Origin: Escherichia phage vB_EcoM_IME392
Sequence record: MH719082.1
Length of the DNA stretch: 64,000 bases
Direction: 5' to 3' (one strand)
The notes under the pieces are model-generated. The model was not told the origin of the DNA. It saw nothing but the letters and a program-made list of their open reading frames with translations, and searched no databases. Of the stretch, positions 1-56,227 are shown piece by piece (positions within the stretch are counted from its first letter, which is position 1; each line of letters opens with the position of its first letter). The position numbers and the translations under genes were made by a program.

Positions 1-931
1 TCACATCCAGAGTTGATCCTGGTTGGAACTCTCGACCAACATCTTCCATTACGTATTCTAGAATACTGTGATCGCTATTATAACGAGAAGCAGCATCTTC
101 AAGAGTAGCGATGTAATGCTGGAAGTAGGTACGGATCTTATACCAGGAATTAAGTGATCCGAGATCAATCGTAGTTACCGGAGCTTCATTAATGTCGTCA
201 ACATAAGCTCGGATATTACTTACCTGCTTCTTGATGTTCGACACTTCCGGATACCAGTGGAGATCATCCGTCATCACCACATAGTTGCCCATATCTACTT
301 TGAGCATAGTTGCGATGATTTCCTGGATGATCGTGAACTCCACCAGATTAACGTTAGTCAATCCCCAGATTAGATCATTACTACGGTTGAATACCGTGCA
401 GTCCAGACCACCATTACGGTACTTAAACGATAGAGCAATGTTGCAGATCATATCTGCGGTATTGATGCTGCCGATGCTGTTTACCAAACCTACATCAGAA
501 TCACGGCTGGGATCGTGAATAGTAGCCACGCACTTACGGTTACCCAGGTCAGAACGGAGGCGGTCTGTTACAGTCTGGAGTTGATCGTAGTTATACAGAC
601 GCTCACCGTAAGCACCACGCCAGGTAACCATATCATCGCTAAACATCTTAGCGCGAGGAACCATAATCGACATCCAGTTATCGATTGCATAGCCACCAGA
701 CAGTACCCACAATACTTCCCCCATAATTCCGAGGATATTGTCTTTACGTTCTGGATGAGCCATCCAACGATTAATCGGATTACTTAACTCAACTACAGCA
801 TGACCGATGGATACTACCGCCGAAGAGTTAACAGAAGTTCTGGACTTCTGCAACTCACCAGCCTTATCCATAGTATTGATGCTGTTAACCAGGATTTCAG
901 TATTACTGTTACCGCGAATTACCGAGATCAT
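1..931 (-). CDS. Thymidylate synthase-family enzyme (ThyA-like or dNMP hydroxymethylase-like); C-terminal part lies beyond the window edge
   Basis: Absent from the ORF track because no stop falls in the window. ATG at 931-929 overlaps the TGA of the upstream gene (ATGA). Minus-strand translation is open from 931 to position 1 (checked over ~270 nt: MISVIRGNSNTEILVNSINTMDKAGELQKSRTSVNSSAVVSIGHAVVELS...). TS-like blocks read: VTWRGAYGERLY, DPSRDSD, MICN (where ThyA has PCH), LDCTVFNRSNDLIWGLTNVNLVEF (cf. ThyA [22 protein letters not shown]), TDDLHWY (cf. GGDTHLY). Confidence 0.6.
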   Translation of the reverse strand, partial: MISVIRGNSNTEILVNSINTMDKAGELQKSRTSVNSSAVVSIGHAVVELSNPINRWMAHPERKDNILGIMGEVLWVLSGGYAIDNWMSIMVPRAKMFSDDMVTWRGAYGERLYNYDQLQTVTDRLRSDLGNRKCVATIHDPSRDSDVGLVNSIGSINTADMICNIALSFKYRNGGLDCTVFNRSNDLIWGLTNVNLVEFTIIQEIIATMLKVDMGNYVVMTDDLHWYPEVSNIKKQVSNIRAYVDDINEAPVTTIDLGSLNSWYKIRTYFQHYIATLEDAASRYNSDHSILEYVMEDVGREFQPGSTLDV

Positions 932-1650
932 TTAGAGTCCTTACGCACTGAATCAATAGACTTAACTGCAGAGGACAGTAACTCCAGACGGGCCTCCTGA
1001 GGGATCATACCAGATGGCTCATTCAGGATCATAATACCTTTACCAGTATTAGTAAAACGAGCTGTGATTGATCCAGGATACACCGGATGATTCAGAGTTA
1101 CAGAATTACACAACGCAGCACCGAATCGCTCCTCGTAGGCACGCATAGTTACCTTAAGGAGAGTAGAACTGACTGCTACAGAGTATTCCGGATCAACAAC
1201 ACGGAAGTTATTGTCCTCAATACTCTTATCCTTCGTATTGAAGAACAGAGTCATGTTATAATAATCAATAGACTCGTTACTGAGACGTAATGCCTCATCA
1301 CGAGCTTCCTGGCTAGCAAACATACTGTTATGCAGCAGGAAGTAAACGTACGAATCGAATACCGCACGATCACTGACGATCAACTCGCCACGATTGTAGG
1401 CATCCTTGAACATCTGAGTTCGCTGACGAATAAGACGCAGCTGGAACTCTACCGCTTCCATAGGATCTTCCACAGCTAAGCGCAGAATATCCATATGGGA
1501 TGTTACTCCCAGAGGAAGATGGTCACGAGTCTGTACTGCACGGAAGGTACATTCGGTTGATTCTTCCCAGCCTTTAGCCAGAGTAGATTTACCGGTACCC
1601 TGCGCACCAGACATAATTACACTGTAGCCTGGGATACTATAGTCTCTCAT
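928..1650 (-). CDS. P-loop kinase (dNMP kinase-like, or hydroxymethyl-pyrimidine DNA kinase-like)
   Basis: Walker A motif SGAQGTGKST near the N-terminus. Likely true start is the ATG at 1650 (MRDYSIPGYS...) preceded by GGAGAG; the ORF track extends to a TTG at 1662. Stop overlaps the start of the downstream TS-family gene. Confidence 0.5.
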   Translation of the reverse strand: MRDYSIPGYSVIMSGAQGTGKSTLAKGWEESTECTFRAVQTRDHLPLGVTSHMDILRLAVEDPMEAVEFQLRLIRQRTQMFKDAYNRGELIVSDRAVFDSYVYFLLHNSMFASQEARDEALRLSNESIDYYNMTLFFNTKDKSIEDNNFRVVDPEYSVAVSSTLLKVTMRAYEERFGAALCNSVTLNHPVYPGSITARFTNTGKGIMILNEPSGMIPQEARLELLSSAVKSIDSVRKDSK

Positions 1651-1739: not shown

Positions 1740-2711
1740 CTAGCTAAACTTATACCAGCGAGGTCTCATACGGATCTCGTGATTCAGTTTATGTAGTTTC
1801 GAGAATTCGCAGAATGAGTTGGTGAACATCTGACGAGTATAGAACCGCTCATCCTCCGGCATGAAGTGGAACCATTTCTCCGGCTCCCATGCATACCCGA
1901 AATGAGCACATATCTCTTTGATGTTCTGATACCACCATTCCACGAACATCTGGTAGCCGCAAGGAGGGTTCTGGTCATTAAGCATGTACCATACCCCATC
2001 CTGCGTCCCGGGTCCACATACGATAGCATCGTTATCTGTGTACGCAGTCTCTTTAGAGTAGGACATAGTTGCCCAGCATTGATATGCCATGAACGGACCT
2101 AATCCAGATACCTGTAACAGATGCTCGATGGCCTCGGTAGCGAACGGAGACTTCCATGCCAGTAAGATAGGATCACTGTAGGTCTTCACCAGATAGGCTC
2201 TGGCAGCTACACTGTACTTAATATCCTCTGGACATACTTCATTAGCCATCTTAACTGCTGTGCTAAGGAAGTAGGCATTTGATTGCTGTGGAGCAGTGAA
2301 CGGAGGACCATCCTCATAACGACGTAGCTCTTCACGACCCATGTTATGTATGTCGTCATAGCTCATCTCATAAAGAGGAAGGACTCTGCGGAAGCGATCC
2401 ATATATGAATCACCACGGTTTATCATCTGGAAGAGTACCACGTTAAGCGCCTTACTCTCCCAGCTTAGGGAATCGTTCTCCAGAATGTTCTTGATAGCCC
2501 ATACTGTTTCACGATCGTGCTTACGGAACACGTTAGTGAATTTAAACTTACTAATCCACTTATGTTCTGTCCACGGAGGAGGTAGCTTAAGTATCTCCTT
2601 CTTATAATAAACCTCAGTCCGCTCGCGGTTATACTCCACATACTCACGTAGCTCCTCGGGATTTATCATCCCGAGTAACCCGTCGAAGTGCAAACCTAAC
2701 GGTTTAGACAT
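1740..2711 (-). CDS. Hypothetical protein, Trp/Cys-rich, in the putative DNA-modification module
   Basis: 323-aa ORF with canonical ATG (2711-2709) overlapping the stop of the upstream gene (TAATG). No motif I can name with confidence. Confidence 0.5.
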   Translation of the reverse strand: MSKPLGLHFDGLLGMINPEELREYVEYNRERTEVYYKKEILKLPPPWTEHKWISKFKFTNVFRKHDRETVWAIKNILENDSLSWESKALNVVLFQMINRGDSYMDRFRRVLPLYEMSYDDIHNMGREELRRYEDGPPFTAPQQSNAYFLSTAVKMANEVCPEDIKYSVAARAYLVKTYSDPILLAWKSPFATEAIEHLLQVSGLGPFMAYQCWATMSYSKETAYTDNDAIVCGPGTQDGVWYMLNDQNPPCGYQMFVEWWYQNIKEICAHFGYAWEPEKWFHFMPEDERFYTRQMFTNSFCEFSKLHKLNHEIRMRPRWYKFS

Positions 2712-3790
2712 TAAAGAATACCTTCTTTGGTAAAGTAGTCTATTACTTCATCCTGAAGTTCTTGTGCGTAATCCTTGCGCAGATATAGATTCTCATACTG
2801 ATGTTTCAGCAGAGCATCACGATCTTTCAGTTTCTCTGCAATCTCCGCATTACTGGAGACGATCAGAGGAGCCAGTAGCTCTTCGGGGACGCCGCTCCGG
2901 ATTATTGTTCCAGCAGCATCTTTATCCACCAGCATCAGAGTACCAGAGCTCAGGTATTCGTAATAACGGTTAGGTGGGCTGGTATAGAACGAATTACTGG
3001 AGTTCCAGTCTTCGATAAGCAGTACCGCTGCATATTTAGCCACTTCATCCAGCATCTCTGACAGCTTAAACTTAGGCAGCCAGTTAATCGGAGCAGCAGG
3101 TCCCAGCCACTTACGTTCTTTAGGATCCAGCTCTTCCCAGTTTTCCTGCTCGTAGCCGTCAAATCCTGCAAGACCACCAGTATGTTTAGCGATGGACATC
3201 TGAGCTTTGTAGCTCGGCACCGACATAAACAGTTCCAGACCATCTTGCTGGGAGAAGTACTGAGTGAACTTATGGAAGCGGCCTTCACGAGCAGCACCGT
3301 AATACAGCAGGCTATTGTCCGGCTTATCTGACGATCCATAGCGAGGCTTACGACCAGGAACGTAGGTAAGACGGTTCCAGTTAATGTGATGATAGTTCTC
3401 TTCGCTAGGAGAATACTGATTACCCCAGGAAGTACGTTCAAATGCTGCTACAACTTTAAATACAGTAGCTGCGGTGATGTGTCTCCACTGCGGACCCTGG
3501 ATACGCATCTTAGACGAGTAATCCTGTCCAATCCAGTAGAACTTAGCTCCGACATCTGCCTGGTCTACCCAGAACTTATACATCTCGTCGCGGAACTTAC
3601 AGAAGGTAGGAACACCATTGATGGCGATAATCACGTCATATTTAGTGCCATCTTCCATAGCCTTAACGAACTTAGGAGTATCGTCCAACAGGTCAGCTTG
3701 AAGTCCGTAGGCTAACCAGGAAGCCAGAGTATTACTGGCAATGATGGATTTATCGCTGCATGGCGAAAAGTTAGTTACTGCAATCTTCAT
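2711..3790 (-). CDS. Glycosyltransferase resembling phage DNA beta-glucosyltransferase (T4 BGT-like, GT-B fold)
   Basis: 359 aa. N-terminus MKIAVTNFS..., YDVIIAINGVPTF, LLYYGAAREGR and AAVLLIEDWNSSNSF...TLMLVD line up with my recollection of T4 beta-glucosyltransferase (MKIAIINMG..., IYGGSFRSGQR, IAALIIGDKNYNDNF...AVMLID). GGAGAAA RBS before ATG 3790. Confidence 0.5.
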   Translation of the reverse strand: MKIAVTNFSPCSDKSIIASNTLASWLAYGLQADLLDDTPKFVKAMEDGTKYDVIIAINGVPTFCKFRDEMYKFWVDQADVGAKFYWIGQDYSSKMRIQGPQWRHITAATVFKVVAAFERTSWGNQYSPSEENYHHINWNRLTYVPGRKPRYGSSDKPDNSLLYYGAAREGRFHKFTQYFSQQDGLELFMSVPSYKAQMSIAKHTGGLAGFDGYEQENWEELDPKERKWLGPAAPINWLPKFKLSEMLDEVAKYAAVLLIEDWNSSNSFYTSPPNRYYEYLSSGTLMLVDKDAAGTIIRSGVPEELLAPLIVSSNAEIAEKLKDRDALLKHQYENLYLRKDYAQELQDEVIDYFTKEGIL

Positions 3791-4878: not shown

Positions 4879-5490
4879 TTATCCAATTTGACGAACTAAG
4901 CGAAACCCTTCGGCGTACGGCCACTGGGCAGAATATCCACGTAAGGTGGCTAGAGCTAAGATACTCTGGGTATCTCGGTCTGACTTAATCTGGGAGTCGA
5001 ATCGTCCCATAGCCTGGCACTTACACTCAATATCGTCCTTATTCAGACGCTCGAAGTAATTAGGTTCCATCTGACCGAACTGGGTCAGGGACTCGGCATA
5101 CTCATATTCCAGGATAAGCCAGTTATACGCTCGGAGAGCTACACGAGCAGCATGATTAACTAGTTGATGGTCCTGGTGTAGGCTACTGAACGGAATATAG
5201 ACTACATCCGGCCTGATTTTAGCAACATAGTCCGCAATATCCTTAGCCAATTGCGGAATATCCTTCTGAGTCATACCATCGCCTGTGGAGGCATCGTTAC
5301 GCTCCAGGCAATGTACTTCTTTGATATTCGGATAGACACCGAATGCTGCTTCGGCTTCACCACGACGGGTCTCGTCCGGAGCAGTTACTTCGAGGATGAA
5401 AAATTGGTCGTCGCGGAATTTGCTCATAATACCTCCGCAACCCAGAATCTCATCATCGTGATGTGGGCTGATAATCAATCGTGACTTCAT
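4879..5490 (-). CDS. PIG-L/LmbE-family zinc-dependent de-N-acetylase
   Basis: 203 aa. Signature LIISPHHDDEILGCGG (PIG-L HPDDE motif) and downstream HQDHQ. GAGGA RBS before ATG 5490. Confidence 0.7.
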   Translation of the reverse strand: MKSRLIISPHHDDEILGCGGIMSKFRDDQFFILEVTAPDETRRGEAEAAFGVYPNIKEVHCLERNDASTGDGMTQKDIPQLAKDIADYVAKIRPDVVYIPFSSLHQDHQLVNHAARVALRAYNWLILEYEYAESLTQFGQMEPNYFERLNKDDIECKCQAMGRFDSQIKSDRDTQSILALATLRGYSAQWPYAEGFRLVRQIG

Positions 5491-5555: not shown

Positions 5556-5590
5556 CCTTAACAGCCTTTTAGGTCATCAAACAGGAGGAG
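5556..5590 (-). promoter_or_regulatory. Conserved bipartite intergenic motif, copy 3 (degenerate downstream block, overlaps the BCCT stop codon)
   Basis: CCTTAACAGCCTTTTaggtcatcAAACAGGAGGAG; the second block lies in the last codons of the BCCT gene. Confidence 0.3.
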
Positions 5591-6959
5591 TTTCCTTAGC
5601 CAAGAATACTTTAGGTACAAAGATCTTGAGGAACCCGAATAGAATACACAATACCCCAATCAGTACCGGAACAGCCGATACAGCTACCAGAGTCTTCGTT
5701 ACAGTTACTACGTCACCACCTGCCCAGTTAAGTGCAGCAGCAACTACACCCATGCTTACAATCCAGAATACACGAGTTCTAGGAGCGGTCATGGACTCTA
5801 CCGTAATACCTGCTGAGTCATGACCTGTAATAAAGAACAGAATCACAGACACGAGGGTAATTACTGAGAATATCCATCCGCCTGGGAAATTAGCCAGAAG
5901 CTGGAAGATATCCTGAGCACCATGTTGCAAACCGGCTACACCGAATACGGTAAACCATACGTTACTGATAATGGTAGGGAACAGTACACATCCCAGGATC
6001 AGTTCGCGAATAGTACGGCCGTAAGAGATACGTGCCACAAACGCTCCGACGAATAATGCCCAACCTACCCAGGCTGCATAGTAAGCATAAGGCCAGCTAG
6101 CCAGCCATTGCTTCTCTTCAGCAGTACTGCCAATGTTTACCGACATAGGAATAATCTGGAGCAGATAGCTGCCAGAATAGGTGATGGTCTTCCAGAGGTA
6201 TTCAAAGAATGTACCACTTACAGCAACGAATGCCATAATAGATAGAGCTACGATTACATTATATCTGGATAACCACTTAACCCCACGATCGACACCAGTT
6301 ACGGCACTAAGTACAGTGCCCAGAGTCAGGAGTGCGATAATGGTGTAAGGACCAACATCCACACCAAGGAACTCTTTAAATCCAGAACTGATCGGGCCTA
6401 CTGCGTAGACGAACGACAGGGTTAAGCCTATGATGGTCGAGAAGAGTAAGCTTATCGTATTAAGGTTATTCAGAGTTCGGGACTTGAATAACTGATTAAG
6501 CGGACGGTCTTCACCACGTACATGCAGTAAGTACCCGAATGCCACCCCTACGACTGCATACACAGCCCATGCATTAAGTCCCCAGTCAAAGAAGGTAGTT
6601 ACCATATTCTGACGTTCGGACATACCCTCCTGATGATGGTACATAGGTTCGAGTACGCCATAATAAATCATGGATACACCCATACCGGTACTAAACATCA
6701 TAGAGTAATAGGTAAAGCGATTGTATTTCGGAGTACCTTTACCCAGCTTAATGTTACCATGTTTGCTGAATACAAAGAATGCCAGGAACGCCAGGAAGAT
6801 CAGCGAAGACCAGGTAAATATGAATCCATACTGAGATATAAATACAGACTTACTCCAGTCCATTACAGCACCAAACTGGGTGGGAGCAAACATAATGGCG
6901 AGTACAATACCCACCGTTACCAGCACCGTCCCCCAGGTAACTACCTTTGAATCGGACAT
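5577..6959 (-). CDS. BCCT-family (betaine/carnitine/choline-type) secondary transporter, polytopic membrane protein
   Basis: 460 aa, about 12 hydrophobic segments. Carries the BCCT signature region WPYAYYAAWVGWALFVGAFVARISYGRTIRELILGCVLFPTIISNVWFTVFGVAG (cf. BetP/CaiT W-x-FYWAWW-x-W-x-PF-x-G-x-F-x-ARIS-x-GRTIRE) and FSTGMGVSMIYYGVLEP. GAGGAA RBS before ATG 6959. Confidence 0.8.
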   Translation of the reverse strand: MSDSKVVTWGTVLVTVGIVLAIMFAPTQFGAVMDWSKSVFISQYGFIFTWSSLIFLAFLAFFVFSKHGNIKLGKGTPKYNRFTYYSMMFSTGMGVSMIYYGVLEPMYHHQEGMSERQNMVTTFFDWGLNAWAVYAVVGVAFGYLLHVRGEDRPLNQLFKSRTLNNLNTISLLFSTIIGLTLSFVYAVGPISSGFKEFLGVDVGPYTIIALLTLGTVLSAVTGVDRGVKWLSRYNVIVALSIMAFVAVSGTFFEYLWKTITYSGSYLLQIIPMSVNIGSTAEEKQWLASWPYAYYAAWVGWALFVGAFVARISYGRTIRELILGCVLFPTIISNVWFTVFGVAGLQHGAQDIFQLLANFPGGWIFSVITLVSVILFFITGHDSAGITVESMTAPRTRVFWIVSMGVVAAALNWAGGDVVTVTKTLVAVSAVPVLIGVLCILFGFLKIFVPKVFLAKETPPV

Positions 6960-7871: not shown

Positions 7872-7897
7872 TTTAATTCCTCAGTTAACTTGTACAA

Positions 7898-7928
7898 CCT
7901 AACAGCCTTTCGAACCCTAAAAAGAGCG
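7898..7928 (-). promoter_or_regulatory. Conserved bipartite intergenic motif, copy 4
   Basis: CCTAACAGCCTTTcgaaccctAAAAAGAGCG, about 30 nt upstream of ATG 7871. Confidence 0.4.
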
Positions 7929-7942
7929 AAATAATAGATATC

Positions 7943-7964
7943 TAGCCATCTCGTAAGATGGCTA
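7943..7964 (-). terminator. Hairpin directly downstream of the methyltransferase gene (possible terminator)
   Basis: TAGCCATCT-cgta-AGATGGCTA, 9-bp perfect stem; flanked by T/A-rich sequence but no clean U-run. Confidence 0.3.
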
Positions 7965-7972
7965 TGTATATA

Positions 7973-8713
7973 TTACTTTAATTCGGAGAGATCTGCGATC
8001 TTCACCTTAGCTGATACATCCCAGATTCCTTCACCAAATCCGGTATCTTCCAGCAGCTTAGGCACTTCACGTTTCTGTACCTTAGATTGCTCGTACTTAA
8101 GCAGAGGAATATTACCGGTCTTATCTGATTGATCCCACAGATAAGTAGCAGCACCGATGTTATCGAACAGTGCGAGATCTGGATTAAACTGGGTAAGGAG
8201 TCGGCAGTCCCAGTGAGACTTATGTTCCTCGAAAGGATTAGTTTCCGTGCCACGCTGACGATACTCATAGTTAGGAGTACCGATCACGATTTTAGCCTTA
8301 GACTGGAATAGCTTAGACAACACCATAAGCCCGTCTTCGCTATCCAGATGCTCCAACACATCCAGCCAGATAATAGTGCCGAATTTATCCAGCTCTTCAA
8401 TAGGAAGATCTTTCAACAGTTCAACGATATTGCAGATATAGATATCGCTATATACATTTACACTGCCTTTGATGTAGTCTTCGCAGATGTCCAGACCTGT
8501 AATCTGACCATCGAATCCTGCGTTACGGAGAGCAAGACCAATTTCTCCACGACCTAATCCCATATCCAGGATTGGCCCGGAGATAATTTCGTTACGGAGC
8601 ATCCATTGGAGAAAGTGCTTCTGGACTAAGTAGGAGGTGCCTCCGTTGCCCAGTGAAGCCTTCGTGACCTTAGTACCAGGAACGAAATTACACTCGATAT
8701 GTTTACCAAACAT
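7973..8713 (-). CDS. Class I SAM-dependent methyltransferase
   Basis: 246 aa. Motif I ILDMGLGRGEIG, acidic post-I ITGLDI, motif IIWLDVLEHL. GAGGA RBS before ATG 8713. Confidence 0.6.
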   Translation of the reverse strand: MFGKHIECNFVPGTKVTKASLGNGGTSYLVQKHFLQWMLRNEIISGPILDMGLGRGEIGLALRNAGFDGQITGLDICEDYIKGSVNVYSDIYICNIVELLKDLPIEELDKFGTIIWLDVLEHLDSEDGLMVLSKLFQSKAKIVIGTPNYEYRQRGTETNPFEEHKSHWDCRLLTQFNPDLALFDNIGAATYLWDQSDKTGNIPLLKYEQSKVQKREVPKLLEDTGFGEGIWDVSAKVKIADLSELK

Positions 8714-8737
8714 GTTCTGTCCTCATTAGTTTCGACA

Positions 8738-8770
8738 CCTTAACAGCCTTTGGAGCCGTAAAAGAAGTGG
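8738..8770 (-). promoter_or_regulatory. Conserved bipartite intergenic motif, copy 5
   Basis: CCTTAACAGCCTTTggagccgtAAAAGAAGTGG, lying between the terminator hairpin (8784-8811) and the RBS of gene 7973..8713. Confidence 0.45.
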
Positions 8771-8783
8771 TATTGTACATATT

Positions 8784-8811
8784 CAAAAATTAGGGTGGCC
8801 GAAGCCACCCT
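8784..8811 (-). terminator. Rho-independent terminator after the topoisomerase II medium-subunit gene
   Basis: AGGGTGGC-cgaa-GCCACCCT (8-bp GC-rich stem; UUCG loop on the minus transcript), immediately followed on the minus strand by TTTTT. Confidence 0.6.
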
Positions 8812-8817
8812 AGTTAG

Positions 8818-10065
8818 TTACAGTTTACCGATCATCTTCTGAATCATCTCGTCAGAAGTCTGATTCTCTACCTTAGCACGACGTTCTTGCAGATTAGCAA
8901 TGCGGTCGTCGTGATCTTTCTTACGTAGCATGCTGATGCTACGGCTAAGGCAGGAATTCAACACTTCCTGGGTAATACCGAGAGCTTTGATGATCTGAGC
9001 ATCAGACTTATCCTGCATAACCAGCTCGCCCACTTTAGGAAGAATCTGGTAAATCTCGATGTCTCGGTCAATCTTCTTAAGAGACTCAGTCTTATGGACG
9101 GAGAATGCCTGATTGTAGAGAGCCATCGTGACTGCAATCCAGTCGCGAATACCCATCGTCACCAGTTGACCATTGTAGGCTACCTGGATACGATGCGAGC
9201 GGTTCATGTAAGCAATATTCATGCATGCTTCGTGAACCTCGTCCATATCGATGGTCCTGATACGGGGAGCCTTCATTACTCGGATATAGATCTTATCCTT
9301 GGACATGTTCTTGACCAGGATCTTACCTTCTGATAACCACTTATTCAGGAACCCGATGCGAGGAGTAATTACCTCACCAGACCCGATGATGTCGATGGTG
9401 TCGGTATTGACGCGAGTTACCTTAAGGGTAAGGCCTAAGCGACCTACACCAGTTTCCCATAAGGACTTAAGGTCTGACTTACTCGGCACGATATCATACC
9501 CGTACTGAGCCTTAAGCAGATTATAATCGTCATGCTTGTAGGCTTCCAGCAGACTCTCGTAAGTGAATGCTGGGATACGGGACTGAATACCAGTAGCCCA
9601 TGAGAAGGTACCATACATCAGAGCATACGGAATAGGCACTGGAAGGTATGCGTATTCCATCTTCTCTTCACCTTCAACCTGCGGAACATAGTCCGCTAGA
9701 CCGAAGTAGTATTCTGCACGATCTTCGTTCAGGCCAACCTTCGTGTAACGAGGAGCAGCACCAGGAACTTCTTCCAGCAACTTAACGCCGAAAGATCCCT
9801 GACCATCAATAGCACCGATGCGAGCAAGACGGGAAATAGTCCCATCGATAGACTGGTCACCGAATGGGTGTAGCGACTGAGTTTCTGAGATAGCGCTCAG
9901 AGTCCCCACCAGCTTCCCACGAGCAATGCTATTCAGAGCCATGTAGATACGGCGCTGGGCAGGAATCAGGCCATCGATACCGGGAACTACACGATGAAGA
10001 GCACAATACACACTGTAGTCAGTGTAGTTCTTGGTGATGAATTCAGAAATCTTTACCTGTTCCAT
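8818..10065 (-). CDS. DNA topoisomerase II medium subunit (GyrA-like cleavage domain; T4 gp52-like)
   Basis: 415 aa. VVPGIDGLIPAQRRIYMAL resembles the GyrA/ParC DGLKPVQRR-ILY motif. Adjacent to and co-oriented with the ATPase/Toprim subunit. AAGGAG RBS. Confidence 0.75.
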   Translation of the reverse strand: MEQVKISEFITKNYTDYSVYCALHRVVPGIDGLIPAQRRIYMALNSIARGKLVGTLSAISETQSLHPFGDQSIDGTISRLARIGAIDGQGSFGVKLLEEVPGAAPRYTKVGLNEDRAEYYFGLADYVPQVEGEEKMEYAYLPVPIPYALMYGTFSWATGIQSRIPAFTYESLLEAYKHDDYNLLKAQYGYDIVPSKSDLKSLWETGVGRLGLTLKVTRVNTDTIDIIGSGEVITPRIGFLNKWLSEGKILVKNMSKDKIYIRVMKAPRIRTIDMDEVHEACMNIAYMNRSHRIQVAYNGQLVTMGIRDWIAVTMALYNQAFSVHKTESLKKIDRDIEIYQILPKVGELVMQDKSDAQIIKALGITQEVLNSCLSRSISMLRKKDHDDRIANLQERRAKVENQTSDEMIQKMIGKL

Positions 10066-10067
10066 AA

Positions 10068-12053
10068 TTACTCCTTAAACAGACCGTAGTCTTCTAACAG
10101 TTGGCGACGAGCACGAGATGAGTACAGCAACTTACGAGCGGCATCGAGATGCTCTTCATTATCATCGTAGGTTACCTGGATAAGACGGCGAGATTTCGAG
10201 TTAATGATGAATTGCTCAGTTTCTTCTTCGGTATATGACCCGAGTCCCTTACGACGTTCAACATAGCACTTATCGAAGTCGATCTTATCCTTCTCGTCAG
10301 CGTAGTAGAACTCGGTCTTCTTACCATTCTTAACTACATAGAACGGAGCTTCGAGTTTATACAGACGACCATCTTTAACCAGCTCTGGAGCATGGATAAG
10401 GAAGATTGAGCTAATGAGGTTACTGATGTGCTGACCATCAACATCAAGGTCGGTCATAATGATGATCTTACCGTAACGAGCCTTATCTATGTCAAACATC
10501 TGGCCCATACCACACCCGATAGTATTGATGATCGCCAGCAGCTCTGGGTTATTCACGAATTCCATGATATCCATGGAAGCCGAGTTACGCATCTTACCGC
10601 GAAGAGGAAGCACCGACTGATACTCATTACGCAACTTGATGATATTACCAGAAGCAGACGGACCCTCTGTGATGAACAGCTCACGAAGATCCCAGCGGTC
10701 GGACGGAGATTCGTAGATCTTCGCCATGTCACCATCCATAGCGGCCTTACGGTGATCATCACCCATCACCAGCTTAGACTTAATGAAGTCCATGTTGGAG
10801 AGTTTATTCAGGCTAGCTTTGTAAGCCAGGATCTTGGCAATCAGAGCATCAAAGAATTGCTTATTCTTCTCGTATACCAGGCTGAAGTAGAATGTGAGCT
10901 GACTCAGGCATTCTTTCTCGTAGAAGAAGTACTCGCCATAATAGTCGTAATCGTTGATTTGCTCATCATTCAGCATCAACTTATTCTTAGCCATGATTTC
11001 CCAGTCGCTCCAGGACATACCGAGGCCAGTTAACTTCTCCTTAGTCTGCGAGGAGAATGCTGTACGATAGCTGGAGAAGACGTTAGTGAACACGATCAAT
11101 CCCAGCTTAGCATCACCAACAGTGATAGCAGAGTTAACTTTATTCAGCATACCGCCGAGCGCTCTCGTGACCAGCTTCTCATGCAGACCACCATGCGGGT
11201 TATTGATCAAGTTGATCATGTCTACATGGGAGTAGGACATATTCTTATCAGAGTAGCCCAACTCACCAGAGAAGGTCAGACGATCGTTGAACGAGAACTC
11301 GTACTTGACTGTAGTATCGAGGAACAGCTTCTCATTCTCTGCAACATCACGACGAAAATCCCAGGTAGCCAGAGCTTCACCATTAACGGTGATAGTTGCA
11401 TCACGACCAATCAGGGAGATCTTCAGAGGAACAGTATCCACATCAGACCAGATGCTGCGGTACAGAGTCGCATCAGGCACCATGAAGACTGCTGTGGAGA
11501 AGTCGGTAGCCTTTAACGTCTCGAGCACTTCGTCTGGGAAGCCATCGTCGTGAAGATCATTCAGATCATTGATCACTCCATCGATTTCCATAACACCACG
11601 GCGGAATCCGAGGACATAGAACTGACCTGGCTCCATAGGGATGTGTGCCTTATCTCCCTGCATTACGCGACGGATTACAACGAATCGCTCGGACACTGCG
11701 TTAACAGCGGAGCTACCTACGCCATGGGTACCAGAGGTAATTTCACGGTTATCGCCCAGCTTAGAGCCAGCATGCAGATCTGTTACAGTAGAGAACAGAA
11801 TAGATTTAGACGGATCTTCCGGATCAGCGTAGATAGGAATACCACGTCCGTTATCGGTAACCAACTTGTAGGCTTCACGGTTAATGATCTGCACTAGGTT
11901 AGCATAACCATTAAGCAGCTCGTCCTCCGCATTATTGATTATTTCCTGGAGAGGATGAGTGTAGTTAATCGGGTCACCGAGATACATGGATACGTTCTGA
12001 CGAACGTTATCAGGGTAACGCAATCTTGTGATTTCAATAGCATGTTCTGACAT
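10068..12053 (-). CDS. DNA topoisomerase II large subunit (GyrB-like ATPase plus Toprim; T4 gp39/gp60-like, single polypeptide)
   Basis: 661 aa. GHKL ATPase motif TDNGRGIP; Toprim motifs ITEGPSASGN (cf. EGDSAGG) and IIIMTDLDVDGQHI (cf. IMTDADVDGSHI). GGAGAAA RBS before ATG 12053. Confidence 0.85.
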   Translation of the reverse strand: MSEHAIEITRLRYPDNVRQNVSMYLGDPINYTHPLQEIINNAEDELLNGYANLVQIINREAYKLVTDNGRGIPIYADPEDPSKSILFSTVTDLHAGSKLGDNREITSGTHGVGSSAVNAVSERFVVIRRVMQGDKAHIPMEPGQFYVLGFRRGVMEIDGVINDLNDLHDDGFPDEVLETLKATDFSTAVFMVPDATLYRSIWSDVDTVPLKISLIGRDATITVNGEALATWDFRRDVAENEKLFLDTTVKYEFSFNDRLTFSGELGYSDKNMSYSHVDMINLINNPHGGLHEKLVTRALGGMLNKVNSAITVGDAKLGLIVFTNVFSSYRTAFSSQTKEKLTGLGMSWSDWEIMAKNKLMLNDEQINDYDYYGEYFFYEKECLSQLTFYFSLVYEKNKQFFDALIAKILAYKASLNKLSNMDFIKSKLVMGDDHRKAAMDGDMAKIYESPSDRWDLRELFITEGPSASGNIIKLRNEYQSVLPLRGKMRNSASMDIMEFVNNPELLAIINTIGCGMGQMFDIDKARYGKIIIMTDLDVDGQHISNLISSIFLIHAPELVKDGRLYKLEAPFYVVKNGKKTEFYYADEKDKIDFDKCYVERRKGLGSYTEEETEQFIINSKSRRLIQVTYDDNEEHLDAARKLLYSSRARRQLLEDYGLFKE

Positions 12054-12087
12054 AATTTCTCCGGTCAGGTTTAAATAAGCTCACACA

Positions 12088-12120
12088 GTTTAACAGCCTT
12101 TGGAGGCCTCAAAGGAGCGG
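12088..12120 (-). promoter_or_regulatory. Conserved bipartite intergenic motif, copy 6
   Basis: GTTTAACAGCCTTTggaggcctcAAAGGAGCGG, about 37 nt upstream of the topoisomerase large-subunit start. Confidence 0.4.
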
Positions 12121-12752
12121 TTCACGAACAGGACTAAATCCTCTACTCTGGACTTATCTACCCACTCTGTTCTTCCTGGTAAGGACCTATTAGACTCGGA
12201 GAAGAAAGATAATCTCACTTTTGATTCTAAATCCACTCCCTCTTCTTTAGGCATCTCGATTAAGATTAGCGGGGTCATACCGATGCCTAATCCATCTAAT
12301 CTTCTTTCTATATTTGAAGTAATCCCATATTTAGCATTTCCAGATTGGTCCAATACGATATAAAAGACCACCTTACCTTCTGGAATGGTAGATATCGCTA
12401 GGTTCTTAATCACAGAGTTAGCGTATTCAGGATTCAACCATCGTTTATGATTTGAAGAGGATATCACTTTAGACATCTTCTTCTGGTAGTTCTCATCTTC
12501 CCACATTTTAATGTTGCGATTAGTCATGGAAACAGACCTAGCCCTGGTGGCGCATTCTGATCTTCCACATGTAGGACGATAGCCCTTAATCACGGATTTA
12601 AAGGAGCAGGGTTTTCCACATGAACATATTTTTACAGGAAAGAATTTTAAGTAATATTCATGCGGAGTTAAGCCATGAGATTTGGCATGGGAGGGAAATG
12701 CCTGGCCTCTTACTTCGGCAGAGCATATTCTACATTTATGATTCATAATCAT
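12090..12752 (-). CDS. Zinc-finger protein with GIY-YIG/T5orf172-like C-terminal segment (possible homing-endonuclease-like gene)
   Basis: 220 aa. N-terminal Cys/His cluster (CRICSAEV...H...H, KICSCGKPCSF, TCGRSEC); C-terminal VVFYIVLDQSGNAKYGITSNIERRL resembles GIY-YIG-type motifs. Locally AT-rich compared with flanking genes. Note the ORF's 3' end overlaps motif copy 6. Confidence 0.35.
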   Translation of the reverse strand: MIMNHKCRICSAEVRGQAFPSHAKSHGLTPHEYYLKFFPVKICSCGKPCSFKSVIKGYRPTCGRSECATRARSVSMTNRNIKMWEDENYQKKMSKVISSSNHKRWLNPEYANSVIKNLAISTIPEGKVVFYIVLDQSGNAKYGITSNIERRLDGLGIGMTPLILIEMPKEEGVDLESKVRLSFFSESNRSLPGRTEWVDKSRVEDLVLFVNRSFEASKGC

Positions 12753-12990
12753 ACCACTTAGTTAATTCAAGGAAGTCATCCATCGCGGAATTAAAGAAGG
12801 AGTCTATCTCCTTAGCCATTTCCTTGGCGAAGCGACCAGATTCGGTCGACATCACTACCTTAGCCTCGCCCATAGGGTGCTTGACCACTTCGTAGATTCC
12901 CAGATTTGGGTAATACACTATGCTGGATAGGAAGTTTACAGACTTAACCACCACAGTATTGAATTGAGTTACTTCCACCATCTTAATCAT
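12736..12990 (-). CDS. Hypothetical small protein
   Basis: 84-aa ORF with ATG, co-oriented and overlapping its neighbours in an operon-like arrangement. Confidence 0.4.
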   Translation of the reverse strand: MIKMVEVTQFNTVVVKSVNFLSSIVYYPNLGIYEVVKHPMGEAKVVMSTESGRFAKEMAKEIDSFFNSAMDDFLELTKWYDYES

Positions 12991-13301
12991 GCTTCACCTA
13001 CCATTTTCAGGAAGGTGTCTACCATAATCGGGTCGAAGCTATCGACATCGGCAGTATGCATCAGGGCGGAGAATAATGAGTTAGCCCAGTGCTCCGTAAC
13101 TCCGTCTTTACCTTCGAGAATTACGCAGTACTGATCTTTGGAAGGATGGTACTGAATCTTAGCAACATTGCGATTCGAGGTCAGGACCAAAATCTTGGTT
13201 CCCGAGATAGTGAAGATTCTAGACATATAATAATCCCAAATTAGAAGATCCGCAGCGGGAACGCCCCGCCACCCAAAAGAACGGGCTTTAGGAGGTCCCA
13301 T
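12987..13301 (-). CDS. Hypothetical small protein (start uncertain; internal ATG at 13226 possible)
   Basis: 104-aa ORF; the upstream ATG lacks a clear SD and an internal Met (MSRIFTISG) is an alternative start. Confidence 0.4.
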   Translation of the reverse strand: MGPPKARSFGWRGVPAADLLIWDYYMSRIFTISGTKILVLTSNRNVAKIQYHPSKDQYCVILEGKDGVTEHWANSLFSALMHTADVDSFDPIMVDTFLKMVGEA

Positions 13302-13373: not shown

Positions 13374-16139
13374 CTACTCTTCCATAAACGTAGTTACGTT
13401 ATTGGAAAGGTAGGCACCAATTTTAGTGTTATATCTCTGGAAGGTAGGAACATGGGTAACCAGGATGATGTGGTTAACCGGAATGTCCTGAAGAGCATCA
13501 ATAGCTACGTCCAGAGTATTTACGTCCAGATTTCGCAGAGACTCATCCAGAATCAGACATCCTGCTCCCTTACTGAGGCTAATCAGCTTACCGATGAACA
13601 GTACGTCCACCAGGTTCTGTTGGCCACCAGACAGATCAGCATACGGAATTAACAGATCTCCAACTTTGTATTGAACATCGAAGTCAATCTTGATAGCTCC
13701 GTTAGCCTGTTCACGAACAGTAGAAATTACCATATCTCCACCAGTCATCATAGCAGCTACTTCTTTGAAGATAGAAGCAGTTACATCGCCGCTATTAGTG
13801 AACAGGCTCTGATACTCAACCAGTTTCTGATACTTAGGCTGGAGAATAGCCAACTGCGCATTAGCATCGTCGAGTTTCTTCTGAGCCTCGTCCATACGAG
13901 TCTTCAGACTACGAAGAGTAGCCATAGCGCCGATGGTAGAGTTGATCTCGATTAGCTCCTGCTCCAGCTTAGCCACTTCCTCTTCGAGAACCTGCACGGA
14001 AGGATAGGACTTAGTCTTACTCTTAAGCACTTCCACGTCGCTATTAACGGTATGGATCTTCTGACGAAGAGTAGCCACATCGTTCAGCAGACCGGACTTA
14101 CGTCTTAGTTCGGCTAATTCACTATTCTTAACGTTAAGCTTCTCTCTGAGTTCATCAGACTTAGGAGCCTTACTGATCTCAGCCTCGACAGCATCCAGCT
14201 TAGTAACAGATGCAGATCCTTGGGTTTCGAGATCATCCATCTTAGCTCTGATAGACTTCTCTACTTCTTTAATGTCCTCTTCCTTAAGGGACTGCTTACA
14301 GGTTGGGCACGTAGTAGGGATGTTGCGCATCTCGGTCTCGAGCTTAGTTAACTCCTTCTCTAAGCGAGTTAACTCATTAGTCAGAGATTCACTCTGATTA
14401 TGCAGTGACCGGATGTTACCTTCTACTTCAGATACCTCGGCATCCAGAGTAGTGATTTCGTCCCGGACCTTAGCGAGAGCGGAGTTAACCTCCTCTTCGT
14501 TAAAGTCAATCTTGAACGCAGCCAGAGAATCTTCCAGCATCTGGAGACTCTGTAGCTTACTGTCCAGATTACCCAGCTCACGGATCTTCTGACGAATATC
14601 ATCAATCTGTGGCAGGATTCGAGACTTATCTTCTTCCAGATTACTCACGTCCTTAAGTTTGGAGAAGTCGTGATCCTCCATGGTCTTAAGGACTTCTTCC
14701 TGAGCAGTTACCTGGGTCTGATAGTTACTGATCTCTACCTTACAGTTCTTAGCCGAGGCCTTTGCGACAGCTTCGTACTGGTTAATTACGGTAAGACCGA
14801 GCATCTTCGTGATCAGGTTAATACGTTCGTTGAATCCGAACTGGCTCAAGAACGGAGGACTATTCTGGGAACGATACAGAAGATCGAAGTGTTCGAGGAA
14901 TGGCAACATCTCCCAGAGCTTAGCTTCACGCTCTCGGATACTACCACCATCCATCTCATCACCATCAATCCAGACTCGGAAAGTCTGACCACCAGCCCAA
15001 TGGCGACTGATCAGGAATTCACGACCACCATACTCTAGCATCACTTCTACCAGAAGATGGTCTTGACCGCGTCTCACCACGTTACGAGGACTGTCGCTAC
15101 CAGTTAAGCAGTAGTTAAGAGCTCTCAGCAACGAGGATTTACCGTTACCAGTTTCGCCGTAGAGATAAGTAAGACCTCGCTTAAAGTTAAGCTCCAGCTT
15201 ATCAATACTGCGGAAGTTCTCTACCTTAATACTATTCAAGGTAAAGTTAAGGTCGAAGACCGACTCGGAACGATCAACGTGGGTAGACATCTCATCATGG
15301 ATATCTTTAAGACCCTTTGCCCGAACGACTTTGTCGATTACTTCTTCAACATCGATAGATTTAACTGAGATGCGTGAAGCATCCATCATCTGAGCTCTTT
15401 CACGAACTACCAGATGAGGGTAATTATCCATACCGGCAGGTACTTCATCTTCCCAGTACATCTTGAGGTATTTGTAGGAGTCAGACTCTACCGGAACCCG
15501 CTGCCAGGAAAGATCTTTAAGATCCAGCAGCACCAAGCTACCGTCCTGACAGTCACCCATCCCGTGAGGAATAGGTACGTTAACCGAGTGGGTATGACCG
15601 ATGCTGATAGGACGATGGATGTCACCAGCAAATCCCAGCTCATACTTAGTATCGTCGAACTCCTGACCAAACATAGAGGACAGAGTAATGTGGCCAATAA
15701 GGACATCTACTTTATCTTCGATAAAACTGAAGTCCTGGGTAGGACGCCAGTCGCTAAAGGCGACCTTACGGCCACCTAAGTTCAGGATTTTACCATCGAC
15801 ATATTCTGCCTTACCAGCGAGGATCGGCACCAGTGAGTTCTGGTAGTGATCAGCATCTACTGATTTGGAGTTAATGTCGTGGTTACCCAGAATATAATAA
15901 ATCTCGGTAAACTGCTCACCGAGGATCTCCATAAACTGGGATGTAGCGTGTGCAATTTTAGGCTCATGCTGAGCCTTATGCACTAAGTCGCCAGCGATAG
16001 ACAGACAGGTTACTTTATGTTCCCTGCCCATCTCCGCCATACGATGAGCTAAACCGATAAACTGCTTTAAGCGAAACCCTTCCGAGTTATGCTGCTGAAA
16101 TTCATGGATATGAATATCAGCTACGATCAACATTTTCAT
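13374..16139 (-). CDS. Fused Mre11/SbcD-like nuclease and Rad50/SbcC-like ATPase (T4 gp47 plus gp46 equivalents in one polypeptide)
   Basis: 921 aa, one continuous ORF. N-terminal calcineurin-like phosphoesterase motifs (IVADIHIH, AGDLVHK, GNHD, GHTH); then Walker A YGETGNGKSS, long coiled-coil with a CPTC zinc-hook-like CxxC in the middle, ABC signature LSGGQQ, Walker B CLILDE and H-loop VTH at the C-terminus. Confidence 0.8.
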   Translation of the reverse strand: MKMLIVADIHIHEFQQHNSEGFRLKQFIGLAHRMAEMGREHKVTCLSIAGDLVHKAQHEPKIAHATSQFMEILGEQFTEIYYILGNHDINSKSVDADHYQNSLVPILAGKAEYVDGKILNLGGRKVAFSDWRPTQDFSFIEDKVDVLIGHITLSSMFGQEFDDTKYELGFAGDIHRPISIGHTHSVNVPIPHGMGDCQDGSLVLLDLKDLSWQRVPVESDSYKYLKMYWEDEVPAGMDNYPHLVVRERAQMMDASRISVKSIDVEEVIDKVVRAKGLKDIHDEMSTHVDRSESVFDLNFTLNSIKVENFRSIDKLELNFKRGLTYLYGETGNGKSSLLRALNYCLTGSDSPRNVVRRGQDHLLVEVMLEYGGREFLISRHWAGGQTFRVWIDGDEMDGGSIREREAKLWEMLPFLEHFDLLYRSQNSPPFLSQFGFNERINLITKMLGLTVINQYEAVAKASAKNCKVEISNYQTQVTAQEEVLKTMEDHDFSKLKDVSNLEEDKSRILPQIDDIRQKIRELGNLDSKLQSLQMLEDSLAAFKIDFNEEEVNSALAKVRDEITTLDAEVSEVEGNIRSLHNQSESLTNELTRLEKELTKLETEMRNIPTTCPTCKQSLKEEDIKEVEKSIRAKMDDLETQGSASVTKLDAVEAEISKAPKSDELREKLNVKNSELAELRRKSGLLNDVATLRQKIHTVNSDVEVLKSKTKSYPSVQVLEEEVAKLEQELIEINSTIGAMATLRSLKTRMDEAQKKLDDANAQLAILQPKYQKLVEYQSLFTNSGDVTASIFKEVAAMMTGGDMVISTVREQANGAIKIDFDVQYKVGDLLIPYADLSGGQQNLVDVLFIGKLISLSKGAGCLILDESLRNLDVNTLDVAIDALQDIPVNHIILVTHVPTFQRYNTKIGAYLSNNVTTFMEE

Positions 16140-28064: not shown

Positions 28065-28146
28065 AATAATTACTCCTAACGTGGTTGCTTACTTTAAGTC
28101 TCTCGTGAAAGATTTAGAGTAAGCATCGGAGGAATTACCTCCGACA

Positions 28147-28179
28147 CTTTAACAGCCTTTCGACGGCACAAAAGAGCGG
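28147..28179 (-). promoter_or_regulatory. Conserved bipartite intergenic motif, copy 14
   Basis: CTTTAACAGCCTTTcgacggcacAAAAGAGCGG, followed on the minus strand by the hairpin TCGGAGG-taatt-CCTCCGA, then the RBS and start of gene 27522..28064. Confidence 0.4.
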
Positions 28180-28181
28180 TT

Positions 28182-54537: not shown

Positions 54538-54879
54538 ATGGCAGCTAAATTTAAACGAGCTAGCGCTACGCTAACTAAATCTGAATCTACCATTTATACT
54601 ACTCCGGCTACTGGTGCTATAATCGTTGGAATCCTGGCAGCCCATAATGGTGTTACAGATGCTGCAGCTCAGTTTCAGCTTAAGATTAAACCTGCATCTG
54701 GAAATGATGTATACCTGCTAGGTAAAGACACTAATCTTCCTCAGAAGTCGGCATTGAATATCGATTCTGCTAAGGTAATTCTCATGGATGGTGATCAGGT
54801 AGTAGCTTCAGCATCTGCTGTAGATACTTCTAATAACTCGAACATGGTAGACCTGACTCTTTCCATTGTGGAGAACTAA
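54538..54879 (+). CDS. Hypothetical tail protein
   Basis: 113-aa ORF with AAGGA RBS. Confidence 0.4.
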   Translation: MAAKFKRASATLTKSESTIYTTPATGAIIVGILAAHNGVTDAAAQFQLKIKPASGNDVYLLGKDTNLPQKSALNIDSAKVILMDGDQVVASASAVDTSNNSNMVDLTLSIVEN

Positions 54880-54880
54880 T

Positions 54881-56227
54881 ATGGGTGGTTATATTGGTTT
54901 CAATCCATCTGATGGTGCTGGTGAACTTCGTAATGAATTGACTCCTAAGATCAAGAACAACCAGGATAACATCATCGAGTTGTGGGCGAATGACTTAGCC
55001 GATTGTGGTTACAATCTGGCAGCTACTTTCGAGTTCGGTGGTATCTTATCTAACCGATTCGATCTGGTAGTATCTCTTGATCGTCAGCGTGCATATTCAT
55101 GGAAGGGTAACTTTCCAGTAGATATTGCAAACGCACCTATCACCCATTCTAATTGGGTACCTTGGTCGATCGACCAAATGGGTGCTGGTAACTTATTGGA
55201 AGTTAAGTGGGTATCCTCTCGTAAGTTATTAGGGTCACCATTATGGGGTGGATTCGTAGCAGCTGATGGTGGTATCTTCTCACGTATCTTGTATCCTGAT
55301 ACTTGGGCAGCAGTCAATGCTGGACTAGTACAAGTATGTCCTGAAGCTGACTGGGTAGCTGATCCTACTAAGCGCCACTGCTATACTACTGGTGATGGTA
55401 CTACTACCTTCCGAGTACCTGACTTAAATGGTGCGTACCGTCATCCTAGTGACTCCTCTAAGAACTCCATTCCAGGATTATTCTTACGTGGTGATAATGG
55501 TAGTGACTACGGATACGTCCAGCGTAATGCTGCACCTAATATTACTGGTATTATACAAGGTCGTACTTCTGGTACTTATGGTCGACTATTCAGTCAATCT
55601 ACTATTAATAGTGGAGCATTACAAACTAGTGATGAGAATGGTGGTGAATTCGCTACTGGTACAGTAACTGCATCGACTCCATCTGATCGTATGAGTAAGT
55701 TACTATTTGATGCATCAAAATCACTTACACCAGGTGCTGAGGCTTACGGTCGTGCTGAACCTAATGGTGCACCTGCTGATGAAGTCCGACCTAACAGTGC
55801 AGTAGGTTGTTACGCTATCCGTCTACAAGGTCGAGTTGTGAATCCCGGTACGGTGGATCTGTTATCATTAGTTGATACAGTTGCAGGTATGACTATAGGT
55901 AATACACCTAGCAGTAATCAGATTCCTAACATGAAGCATTGGACTCGTGGAGGGTCAGGTCGTGCATGGTGGAGGAAAGAACCTGATGGATTCATTAGAC
56001 AGGGAGGATTCTTTACTGCTAATGTTAGACCTGGTTCAGGTACTAAAGTGTACGTTGATGTAACATGGGCTATACCATTCCCTAATGAATGTAACTCAGT
56101 AACCGTAGGTGATGCTGGATTCGGTGATGGTAATATGTGGGGCGCCACTAATATCACCAGGACTGGAGCTCGTTTATGGTGTAGCGCAGTAGGCGAGGGT
56201 GGTTACTACTTGGCTGAGGGCTACTAA
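54881..56227 (+). CDS. Tail fibre protein with phage tail-collar-type domain (receptor-binding protein 1)
   Basis: ORF track 54866..56227; ATG at 54881. Contains YPDTWAAVNAGLVQVCPEADWVADPTKRHCYTTGDGTTTFRVPDLNGAYRHP, a tail-collar-type motif. Followed by a Tfa-like chaperone gene. Confidence 0.55.
   Translation: MGGYIGFNPSDGAGELRNELTPKIKNNQDNIIELWANDLADCGYNLAATFEFGGILSNRFDLVVSLDRQRAYSWKGNFPVDIANAPITHSNWVPWSIDQMGAGNLLEVKWVSSRKLLGSPLWGGFVAADGGIFSRILYPDTWAAVNAGLVQVCPEADWVADPTKRHCYTTGDGTTTFRVPDLNGAYRHPSDSSKNSIPGLFLRGDNGSDYGYVQRNAAPNITGIIQGRTSGTYGRLFSQSTINSGALQTSDENGGEFATGTVTASTPSDRMSKLLFDASKSLTPGAEAYGRAEPNGAPADEVRPNSAVGCYAIRLQGRVVNPGTVDLLSLVDTVAGMTIGNTPSSNQIPNMKHWTRGGSGRAWWRKEPDGFIRQGGFFTANVRPGSGTKVYVDVTWAIPFPNECNSVTVGDAGFGDGNMWGATNITRTGARLWCSAVGEGGYYLAEGY

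Follow-up and report, generated by a model that had tools for sequence, protein, structure and literature searches.

Between a small open reading frame (ORF) and the gene for the topoisomerase II large subunit, the genome of Escherichia phage vB_EcoM_IME392 (MH719082.1) carries a further ORF, and the question raised by this locus is what kind of gene it is and how it came to lie there. The stretch analysed, here called the window, comprises 64,000 nucleotides (nt) of this record, and counts given for the window refer to its full length. We read the ORF as a probable homing-endonuclease-type gene, free-standing and belonging to the T5orf172 branch within the GIY-YIG superfamily, for which cleavage and homing are predicted activities. 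The locus consists of the following elements:

12090..12752, minus strand: T5orf172-type (GIY-YIG superfamily) free-standing homing-endonuclease-like gene, 220 residues, ATG start
12124..12750, no strand: inserted segment of 627 bp with 39.7% guanine plus cytosine (GC), from blastn breakpoints (12123/12761), junction sequences and composition
10068..12053, minus strand: topoisomerase II large subunit (GyrB/Toprim), 661 residues, a conserved essential gene that adjoins the insertion
12736..12990, minus strand: ORF of 84 residues upstream of the endonuclease ORF, its C-terminus remodelled by the insertion
12079..12124, minus strand: copy 6 of a 46-nt repeated motif, upstream of the topoisomerase gene, common to the relatives with an empty site and abutting the insert's right edge

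In the GenBank phage set there is only one close relative, Escherichia phage EP_H11 (OP688485.1), in which DNA spanning the empty junction lies at ~2700-3200 of the record and at ~5900-6400 of L001. In blastn, window positions 8001-12123 and 12761-13246 match adjoining segments of its genome with 19 bp between them. The site, which we call site 1, is empty in EP_H11 and also in four metagenome contigs from public sequencing runs (L008, L010, L011 and L015, with flanks 93-98% identical), and all five share the same breakpoints. The runs that yielded L008-L015 are SRR32678520, SRR32678527, DRR827111, SRR13089957 and SRR13801632. On the gene strand the empty site reads ...TGGTAT, AGTCTTCCA, GAACCGC..., and in the window the central 9 bp, AGTCTTCCA, are swapped for 627 bp. 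The original prediction had read the ORF as a possible mobile homing-endonuclease insertion and proposed a presence/absence comparison; the absence of the ORF from the exact site in five relatives supports that reading, together with the endonuclease-type domain described below. Scans of IMG/VR gave no match with the ORF and, with the topoisomerase, only loci that are about 30% identical. Exact-pattern scans of metagenome and viral contigs for the junction motif gave no match, and word-indexed homologue searches with the protein returned essentially the self-match only.

The ATG of the ORF spans the left junction. At the other end no stop codon is supplied by the insert itself: the last 11 codons and the TAA (12090-12092) are host sequence inside motif copy 6; the overlap with this copy had been noticed earlier and stands. 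The insert disrupts the 3' end of the small upstream ORF, just upstream of the promoter-like motif and the start of the topoisomerase gene. This small ORF has 84 residues and ends in TKWYDYES in the window, versus 87 residues and an end in TGWYSLPEPLL in the empty alleles, and it overlaps the start of the endonuclease ORF by 17 nt. A further difference is found close to the left junction:

12757..12766, no strand: recoded tract, six differences in 10 nt relative to the empty-site consensus

Five of the six differences are unique to IME392, and the recoding is mostly synonymous (GAG CTA ACA GGC to GAA TTA ACT AAG, i.e. ELTG to ELTK). A binomial estimate puts the chance of such a six-in-ten cluster at the order of 1e-6, given a background flank divergence of about 3.6%. 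Since the cluster lies so far above this background, the foreign DNA seems to bring with it a diverged version of the upstream gene's end that is still homologous, which seems to fit arrival by homologous repair from a diverged donor. We regard the tract as a candidate for a donor-derived, cleavage-resistant target variant. An altered target in the carrier, or co-conversion of its flanks, is a trait of the homing class; the 9 replaced bp and the six changes in 10 nt may be such an alteration of a putative target.

A gradient of co-conversion was also considered, because divergence from L008 appeared excessive over 400 bp upstream, and was dropped since all genomes differ by about 3-5% there. 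As the upstream divergence is not specific to IME392, we count it merely as a recombination breakpoint near the insert. The topoisomerase gene is itself strongly mosaic: at positions 10500-11700, pairs among six related genomes differ at 28 to 87 of 1174 bp, with a divergence peak about 600-800 bp inside the gene, which indicates frequent recombination within the replication module. There is a second indel near the endonuclease gene (window 13247-13251 versus L001 6624-6832), where EP_H11 and L015 are about 200 bp longer; EP_H11 has a 79-residue ORF followed by a 48-residue ORF at this place, while the window and L008 have one ORF of 104 residues (12987..13301).

In its composition the segment stands apart from its surroundings, as the original prediction had stated in calling the ORF AT-rich. 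The GC content is 40.3% for the ORF and 39.7% for the insert, against a window mean of 45.3% (standard deviation 2.5% in 627-bp windows), which puts the insert at the 1st percentile among window segments of the same size. GC at third codon positions is 0.41, below the 0.50-0.54 of the adjacent genes. The GenBank counterpart in IME392 is annotated from the second ATG (12746), two codons later, as a "hypothetical protein" of 218 residues, 100% identical. When 1.84 billion representatives were scanned exhaustively with HMMER, 118 homologues were detected, so the ORF is not a chance reading frame; the majority align over residues ~3-110 only, and about 24 of the 118 are full-length.

What the protein does is best approached from its C-terminal part:

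12120..12377, minus strand: T5orf172-type GIY-YIG nuclease domain, residues 126-211, from alignment, structure model and profile

In an alignment of 24 homologues at 20-30% identity, C43, C45, C67, Y131, K141, G143, R151 and E176 are invariant and G57, C62 and E196 nearly so. The first motif is F-Y131-I with an invariant Tyr, and the second is K141-Y-G143 with an invariant Lys at the position of the canonical second Tyr. The segment FYIVLDQSGNAKYGITSNIERRL, earlier described as GIY-YIG/T5orf172-like, does contain the invariant Y131, K141, G143 and R151. With the 24-sequence alignment as input AlphaFold gives a predicted local distance difference test score (pLDDT) of 92.3, compared with 38 from the single sequence, and the model has the compact alpha/beta GIY-YIG fold, i.e. 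a three-stranded antiparallel sheet packed on helices. By their position in the fold, R151 and E176 would correspond to R27 and E75 of I-TevI. When the model was compared with viral models (BFVD) by Foldseek, the top neighbour was the T5 Orf172 protein of Campylobacter phage CP21 (E = 1.8e-6), followed by many more "T5 Orf172" proteins; ICP1 ORF88 superimposes with a root-mean-square deviation of 2.4 A over 99 columns.

The profile searches gave a divided picture. Searched directly, the ORF has DUF6033 as its best Pfam hit (E = 0.01), nothing credible in NCBIfam and no PDB sequence below E = 0.19; it is unmatched by PF10544 and PF13455, and by PF01541 (GIY-YIG) even at E <= 10. Its homologues do match. 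Four of them exceed the PF10544 cut-off of 20 bits (P0028 with 41.2, P0027 with 41.0, P0072 with 27.0 and P0064 with 29.2 bits), P0054 passes the gathering score of PF13455 (MUG113), and the Vibrio-phage homologue stays below threshold with 16.5 bits. A hidden Markov model (HMM) built from the five Pfam-positive domains, with the query excluded, matches the ORF with 26.1 bits (E = 1.1e-6, HMM positions 7-98), whereas the best of 2,360 shuffled decoys scored 12.2 bits. The match covers residues 124-209 of the 218-residue protein P0001, i.e. 126-211 in the numbering of the ORF. Run on the six-frame ORF set of the window, the same model matched this ORF alone (E = 1.8e-7) and no other family member. 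The profile search proposed with the original prediction was thus negative for direct Pfam models and positive for a model of certified T5orf172/MUG113 domains; the ORF is neither universal among its relatives nor free of an endonuclease motif by profile. In PHROGs the ORF has a single match, to a family of unknown function, and other members of its family match PHROGs annotated as "homing endonuclease". From alignment, fold and five-domain model together we conclude that the C-terminal ~90 residues are, as far as prediction goes, a divergent T5orf172-type GIY-YIG domain in which the predicted catalytic core is conserved.

The N-terminal half, residues 1-122, consists of zinc fingers and helical repeats placed ahead of the GIY-YIG fold:

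12675..12734, minus strand: putative C2H2 zinc finger of Ros/MucR type, residues 7-26 (CRIC...H...H, then GLTPHEYY), from the ligand pattern and Pfam matches of homologues
12552..12626, minus strand: Cys4 zinc site, residues 43-67 (CxC...C-x4-C; treble-clef or zinc-ribbon-like), from conserved Cys
12387..12560, minus strand: three long helices in which the motif W-x-[DN]-[PE]-E-[YF] recurs, residues 65-122, probable DNA-binding repeats

The N-terminal Cys/His finger had been recognised from the letters alone, and its pattern is C7-x2-C10-x11-H22-x3-H26, with the Ros/MucR-like continuation HGLTPHEYY. ROS_MUCR (PF05443) is matched by 18 of the 118 homologues (best E = 1.6e-13) and C2H2 Pfam models by 13; the ORF itself matches neither. 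In the Cys4 site, C43-x-C45...C62-x4-C67, the residues C43, C45 and C67 are invariant and C62 is conserved in at least 90% of the 24 homologues, and one BFVD neighbour is named "Treble clef zinc finger domain-containing protein". In the set of 118 homologues, the partners fused to the N-terminal module are TnsA-like, MTES_1575, DUF559/Vsr-like, endonuclease I, GIY-YIG+NUMOD, T5orf172 and uncharacterised DUF7487 domains. Judged from these architectures, the fusion of one module to many nuclease types is domain shuffling of the kind typical of homing endonucleases. The partner that the zinc-finger module precedes most often is Pfam DUF7487, found in 42 of the 118 homologues (P0004, P0015, P0016, P0119 and 38 more, E to 6e-69); since it stands in place of the nucleases or helical repeats of the others, DUF7487 may be a further endonuclease-associated module.

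The family is also found at other sites. Contig L015 has the gene order of the window at about 97% identity, with site 1 empty and a second site occupied:

7884..7973, no strand: empty site 2, a 90-bp intergenic region containing motif copy 4, from the comparison with contig L015

In L015 a segment of 714 bp with 36% GC, encoding the paralogue P0003 (29% identical), replaces window positions 7884-7973, and the P0003 ORF also ends in host sequence. Contig L013, which overlaps window 1-1272 at 98% identity, carries a further paralogue, P0002 (35% GC), at site 3 between the helicase and DNA polymerase genes, ending directly upstream of another copy of the motif. Site 3 measures 830 bp in L013 and 63 bp in EP_H11, where it is empty; in the occupied allele the 63-bp helicase 3' end is recoded, the C-terminus being GTSIPDWFLSTLV versus GQVPEWFLQTLI, each followed by a stop. 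A more distant homologue lies in Vibrio phage 150E35-1, inside an exact 1011-bp insertion (L002 3870-4880, OX241562.1 ~59682-60692) in the RNA-polymerase beta' gene, at the catalytic motif between PFNAD and HDGD; the gene is uninterrupted in Vibrio phage 1.031.O. There the exon ends in T and the insert in G, and the insertion gives a full-length match to Rfam Intron_gpI with 20.9 bits (E = 0.013), below gathering. By these sequence features it is probably an unannotated group I intron. Around the window ORF, matches to intron or other RNA families were at chance level only, and an intron-encoded endonuclease was rejected for the window, as the 9 bp lost to the insert belong to the end of a small ORF and intron models give no match. 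In two phage groups that are unrelated, the family is thus present sporadically and at essential genes, as the paralogues and the Vibrio homologue show, a distribution like that of homing endonuclease genes.

The motif that borders the insert belongs to a 46-nt repeat family which a repeat search found in 15 copies in the window, between 1672 and 29207 (e.g. 12079-12124 and 28138-28183). On the minus strand it reads CCGCTCTTTTG-N6-TCGAAAGGCTGTTAAAnTG, with AAAGGCTGTTA invariant, and the copies whose neighbours were checked lie just upstream of minus-strand gene starts. RNAalifold predicted no conserved stem-loop in the 15 copies, and hand-drawn stems were out of consistent register between copies; without a consensus RNA structure we treat the motif as promoter-like at the sequence level. 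It has the look of a promoter specific to the clade, with TGTTAAAnT resembling an extended -10 element. The endonuclease gene has no copy of its own.

How might the gene work? We suggest that translation of the endonuclease is probably weak and coupled to that of the upstream ORF, which overlaps it by 17 nt. In a cell co-infected by a relative without the gene, the half made of zinc fingers and helices would bind a long, asymmetric stretch at the empty junction or close to it, i.e. at the 3' end of the 87-residue ORF and the topoisomerase promoter, and the T5orf172 domain (with a metal bound by E176, and with R151 and Y131) would nick or cut nearby. The break would then be repaired by recombination from the carrier genome, and the gene and adjacent markers would be copied to the recipient. 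The carrier would be immune because its own site is disrupted and recoded at 12757-12766.

There are several points that weigh against this interpretation. Only one occupied genome is known at site 1, so the choice between gain and loss is made on grounds of parsimony and composition. The gradient of divergence upstream is shared by other genomes, all of which are mosaic. An insert without a stop codon, whose right edge lies at a repeated motif, could have been placed by motif-mediated recombination. In the nuclease domain, the second Tyr of the canonical GIY...YIG is a Lys, and the His that follows the catalytic Glu in some members (E-x-x-L-H) is an Arg; Lys in place of the second Tyr appears to be usual for T5orf172 domains. 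Lastly, the ORF by itself has no direct significant match in Pfam, NCBIfam or the sequences of the PDB.

The behaviour of the motif leads to the alternative that we take most seriously, which is nevertheless unlikely: that the segment is a passive cassette, placed and moved by recombination between 46-nt motif copies in the manner of PeSL cassettes and not by its own nuclease, which would serve otherwise, e.g. in attack on the DNA of the host, a satellite or a competitor phage. The insert abuts the upstream edge of the motif at two of three sites (12123/12124 at site 1 and L013 5757/5758 at site 3), at site 2 a motif copy lies within the replaced segment, shuffling of the PeSL type is documented (PMC2839356, PMC4122927), and ICP1 reportedly deploys T5orf172-derived nucleases against satellites. 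The left edges, however, lie away from motif copies, in the 3' ends of upstream genes, and with recoded, still-homologous sequence, which fits homologous repair from a diverged donor. Moreover, the motif marks many intergenic regions of the early-gene region, so that adjacency to it is weakly informative, and none of the PADLOC defence models matched. The same right edges, together with the fact that the endonuclease ORF lacks its own stop and terminates in host sequence at two of the three sites, can be turned into a different and highly speculative idea, to which we give a slim chance: that the three paralogues, about 30% identical, are a family specific to this lineage, for which the motif makes up part of the landing site. 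If the motif were recognised or cut, the family could colonise new intergenic sites before essential early genes, and this would combine homing with PeSL-type shuffling, the nuclease driving spread to ectopic sites by way of a dispersed regulatory element.

Two other possibilities concern the present function and the history of the gene. The protein might be a domesticated or inactive derivative that is now mainly a sequence-specific DNA-binding regulator, e.g. of the topoisomerase promoter motif. Autorepression by I-TevI is a precedent for an endonuclease that acts as a regulator, the ORF terminates within the promoter-like motif of the topoisomerase gene, its N-terminal finger is like that of Ros/MucR regulators, and it lacks the His after the catalytic Glu. 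A further precedent is CapR, a domain related to T5orf172 endonuclease genes, which is described as a domesticated endonuclease (PMC8096241). Yet the residues of the catalytic core are invariant over 24 diverged homologues including the ORF, which argues for selection on catalysis, and five relatives dispense with the gene, so that it has no essential regulatory role; we therefore consider domestication very unlikely. An ancestral gene lost by one deletion in the lineage of the sampled relatives, with no insertion into IME392, would agree with the single occupied genome and with the identical junction at all five empty sites, as if from one event. This history is the least probable of those considered, since the empty allele has an intact, longer ORF of 87 residues reading smoothly through the junction and the segment is compositionally foreign. 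In addition, the five empty genomes are mosaic, with flank differences among themselves as large as those from IME392, and are thus not one recent clone, and the pattern of gain and loss is repeated with paralogues at two further sites.

It is instructive to compare the putative homing endonuclease gene with known systems. Barth, Dunham & Seed (2023, PMC10448857) report T5orf172 homing endonuclease genes with DNA-binding domains related to zinc fingers from Vibrio phage ICP1, from T5-like phages and from others, and one T5orf172 nuclease is reported there to depend on a conserved Glu. The likeness is broad: as in these genes, a C-terminal T5orf172 nuclease is joined to zinc-finger-related modules, the distribution is patchy between close isolates, the sites lie beside or within essential replication or structural genes, and several diverged paralogues occur per phage lineage; an ICP1 protein is also among the structural neighbours of the ORF. 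Unlike those genes, the domain of the ORF is too divergent for PF10544 and PF13455. Its DNA-binding half is built from a Ros/MucR-like C2H2 finger, a Cys4 site and helical repeats, where a figure legend in PMC10448857 names CapR, DUF723 and DUF4397, and in the sections of that article at hand the IME392/EP_H11 clade is not mentioned among the phages surveyed.

The Seg (GIY-YIG) and Mob (HNH) endonuclease genes of T4 are likewise free-standing, AT-rich and sporadic between conserved genes; their spread depends on the repair of double-strand breaks, in which flanking markers are co-converted, and their own site is polymorphic and resistant (general knowledge and the introduction of PMC10448857). 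The original prediction had referred to T4-like genomes; strictly speaking the phage is not one of these and shares only T4-type replication genes. In Seg the nuclease is N-terminal and the DNA-binding part C-terminal, an order that is reversed in the ORF, and unlike Seg the ORF has a nuclease of the T5orf172 branch with Lys for the second Tyr. With I-TevI of the T4 td intron the ORF shares a modular "beads on a string" architecture with a zinc finger among the modules, and its relative in Vibrio phage 150E35-1 appears to be intron-encoded; unlike I-TevI, the ORF lies outside an intron, has the reversed domain order and shows no detectable sequence similarity. The eukaryotic repair enzymes SLX1 and HIGLE, structure-specific GIY-YIG nucleases, carry a RING/PHD finger at the C-terminus and have SLX4 as partner; they show 12-15% sequence identity to the ORF and no mobile behaviour. 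The PeSL cassettes (PMC2839356, PMC4122927) resemble the locus in the repeated promoter-like motif before early genes and in indels edged at the motif, but here the motif is at the downstream border only, there is no conserved stem-loop, and the cargo is a nuclease gene.

A few other features of the window deserve mention. A gene at 13374-16139 (minus strand) encodes a 921-residue protein that joins an Mre11/SbcD-type phosphoesterase (Metallophos, residues 1-185) to a Rad50/SbcC-type ATPase with a weak zinc-hook match; Mre11/SbcD and Rad50/SbcC are usually two separate genes. In EP_H11 the linear record begins within the counterpart of this gene. In the early-gene region there is a PIG-L-family (deacetylase-like) protein at 4879-5490 (minus strand), and 5577-6959 (minus strand) encodes a 460-residue protein resembling transporters of the BCCT family, for which the EP_H11 annotation is BetT (choline uptake). 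Genes of the BCCT and PIG-L kinds are unusual for a lytic phage. The DNA polymerase of IME392 groups with those of thymidine-hypermodifying phages (PMC12686479), and both proteins may be linked to DNA hypermodification. Two related 77-nt repeats (26102-26178 and 26647-26723), each with a TTCGAA T-loop-like core, resemble minus-strand tRNA genes and are candidates by sequence. The two other stretches of lowest GC (37-39%, at ~56150-56250 and ~59080-59250) lie in or next to tail-fibre-like genes, of which that at 54866..56227 has a Gp53-like C-terminal domain; no endonuclease signature was found in these two stretches.

The ORF clearly belongs to a described kind of mobile gene, of which it is an ordinary example of modest interest, and the current understanding of homing endonucleases is unchanged by it. 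What is gained is that the "hypothetical protein" of IME392 can now be annotated as a T5orf172-type homing-endonuclease-like gene, and that a divergent subfamily is defined, with about 24 detectable members missed by current Pfam models, whose N-terminal zinc-finger and helical half is recognisable and common to many other nuclease types. The IME392/EP_H11 clade offers natural pairs of occupied and empty alleles at the topoisomerase, methyltransferase-like and helicase/polymerase sites, and these pairs at three sites are suited to a direct study of T5orf172 homing, target choice and marker co-conversion in E. coli phages.
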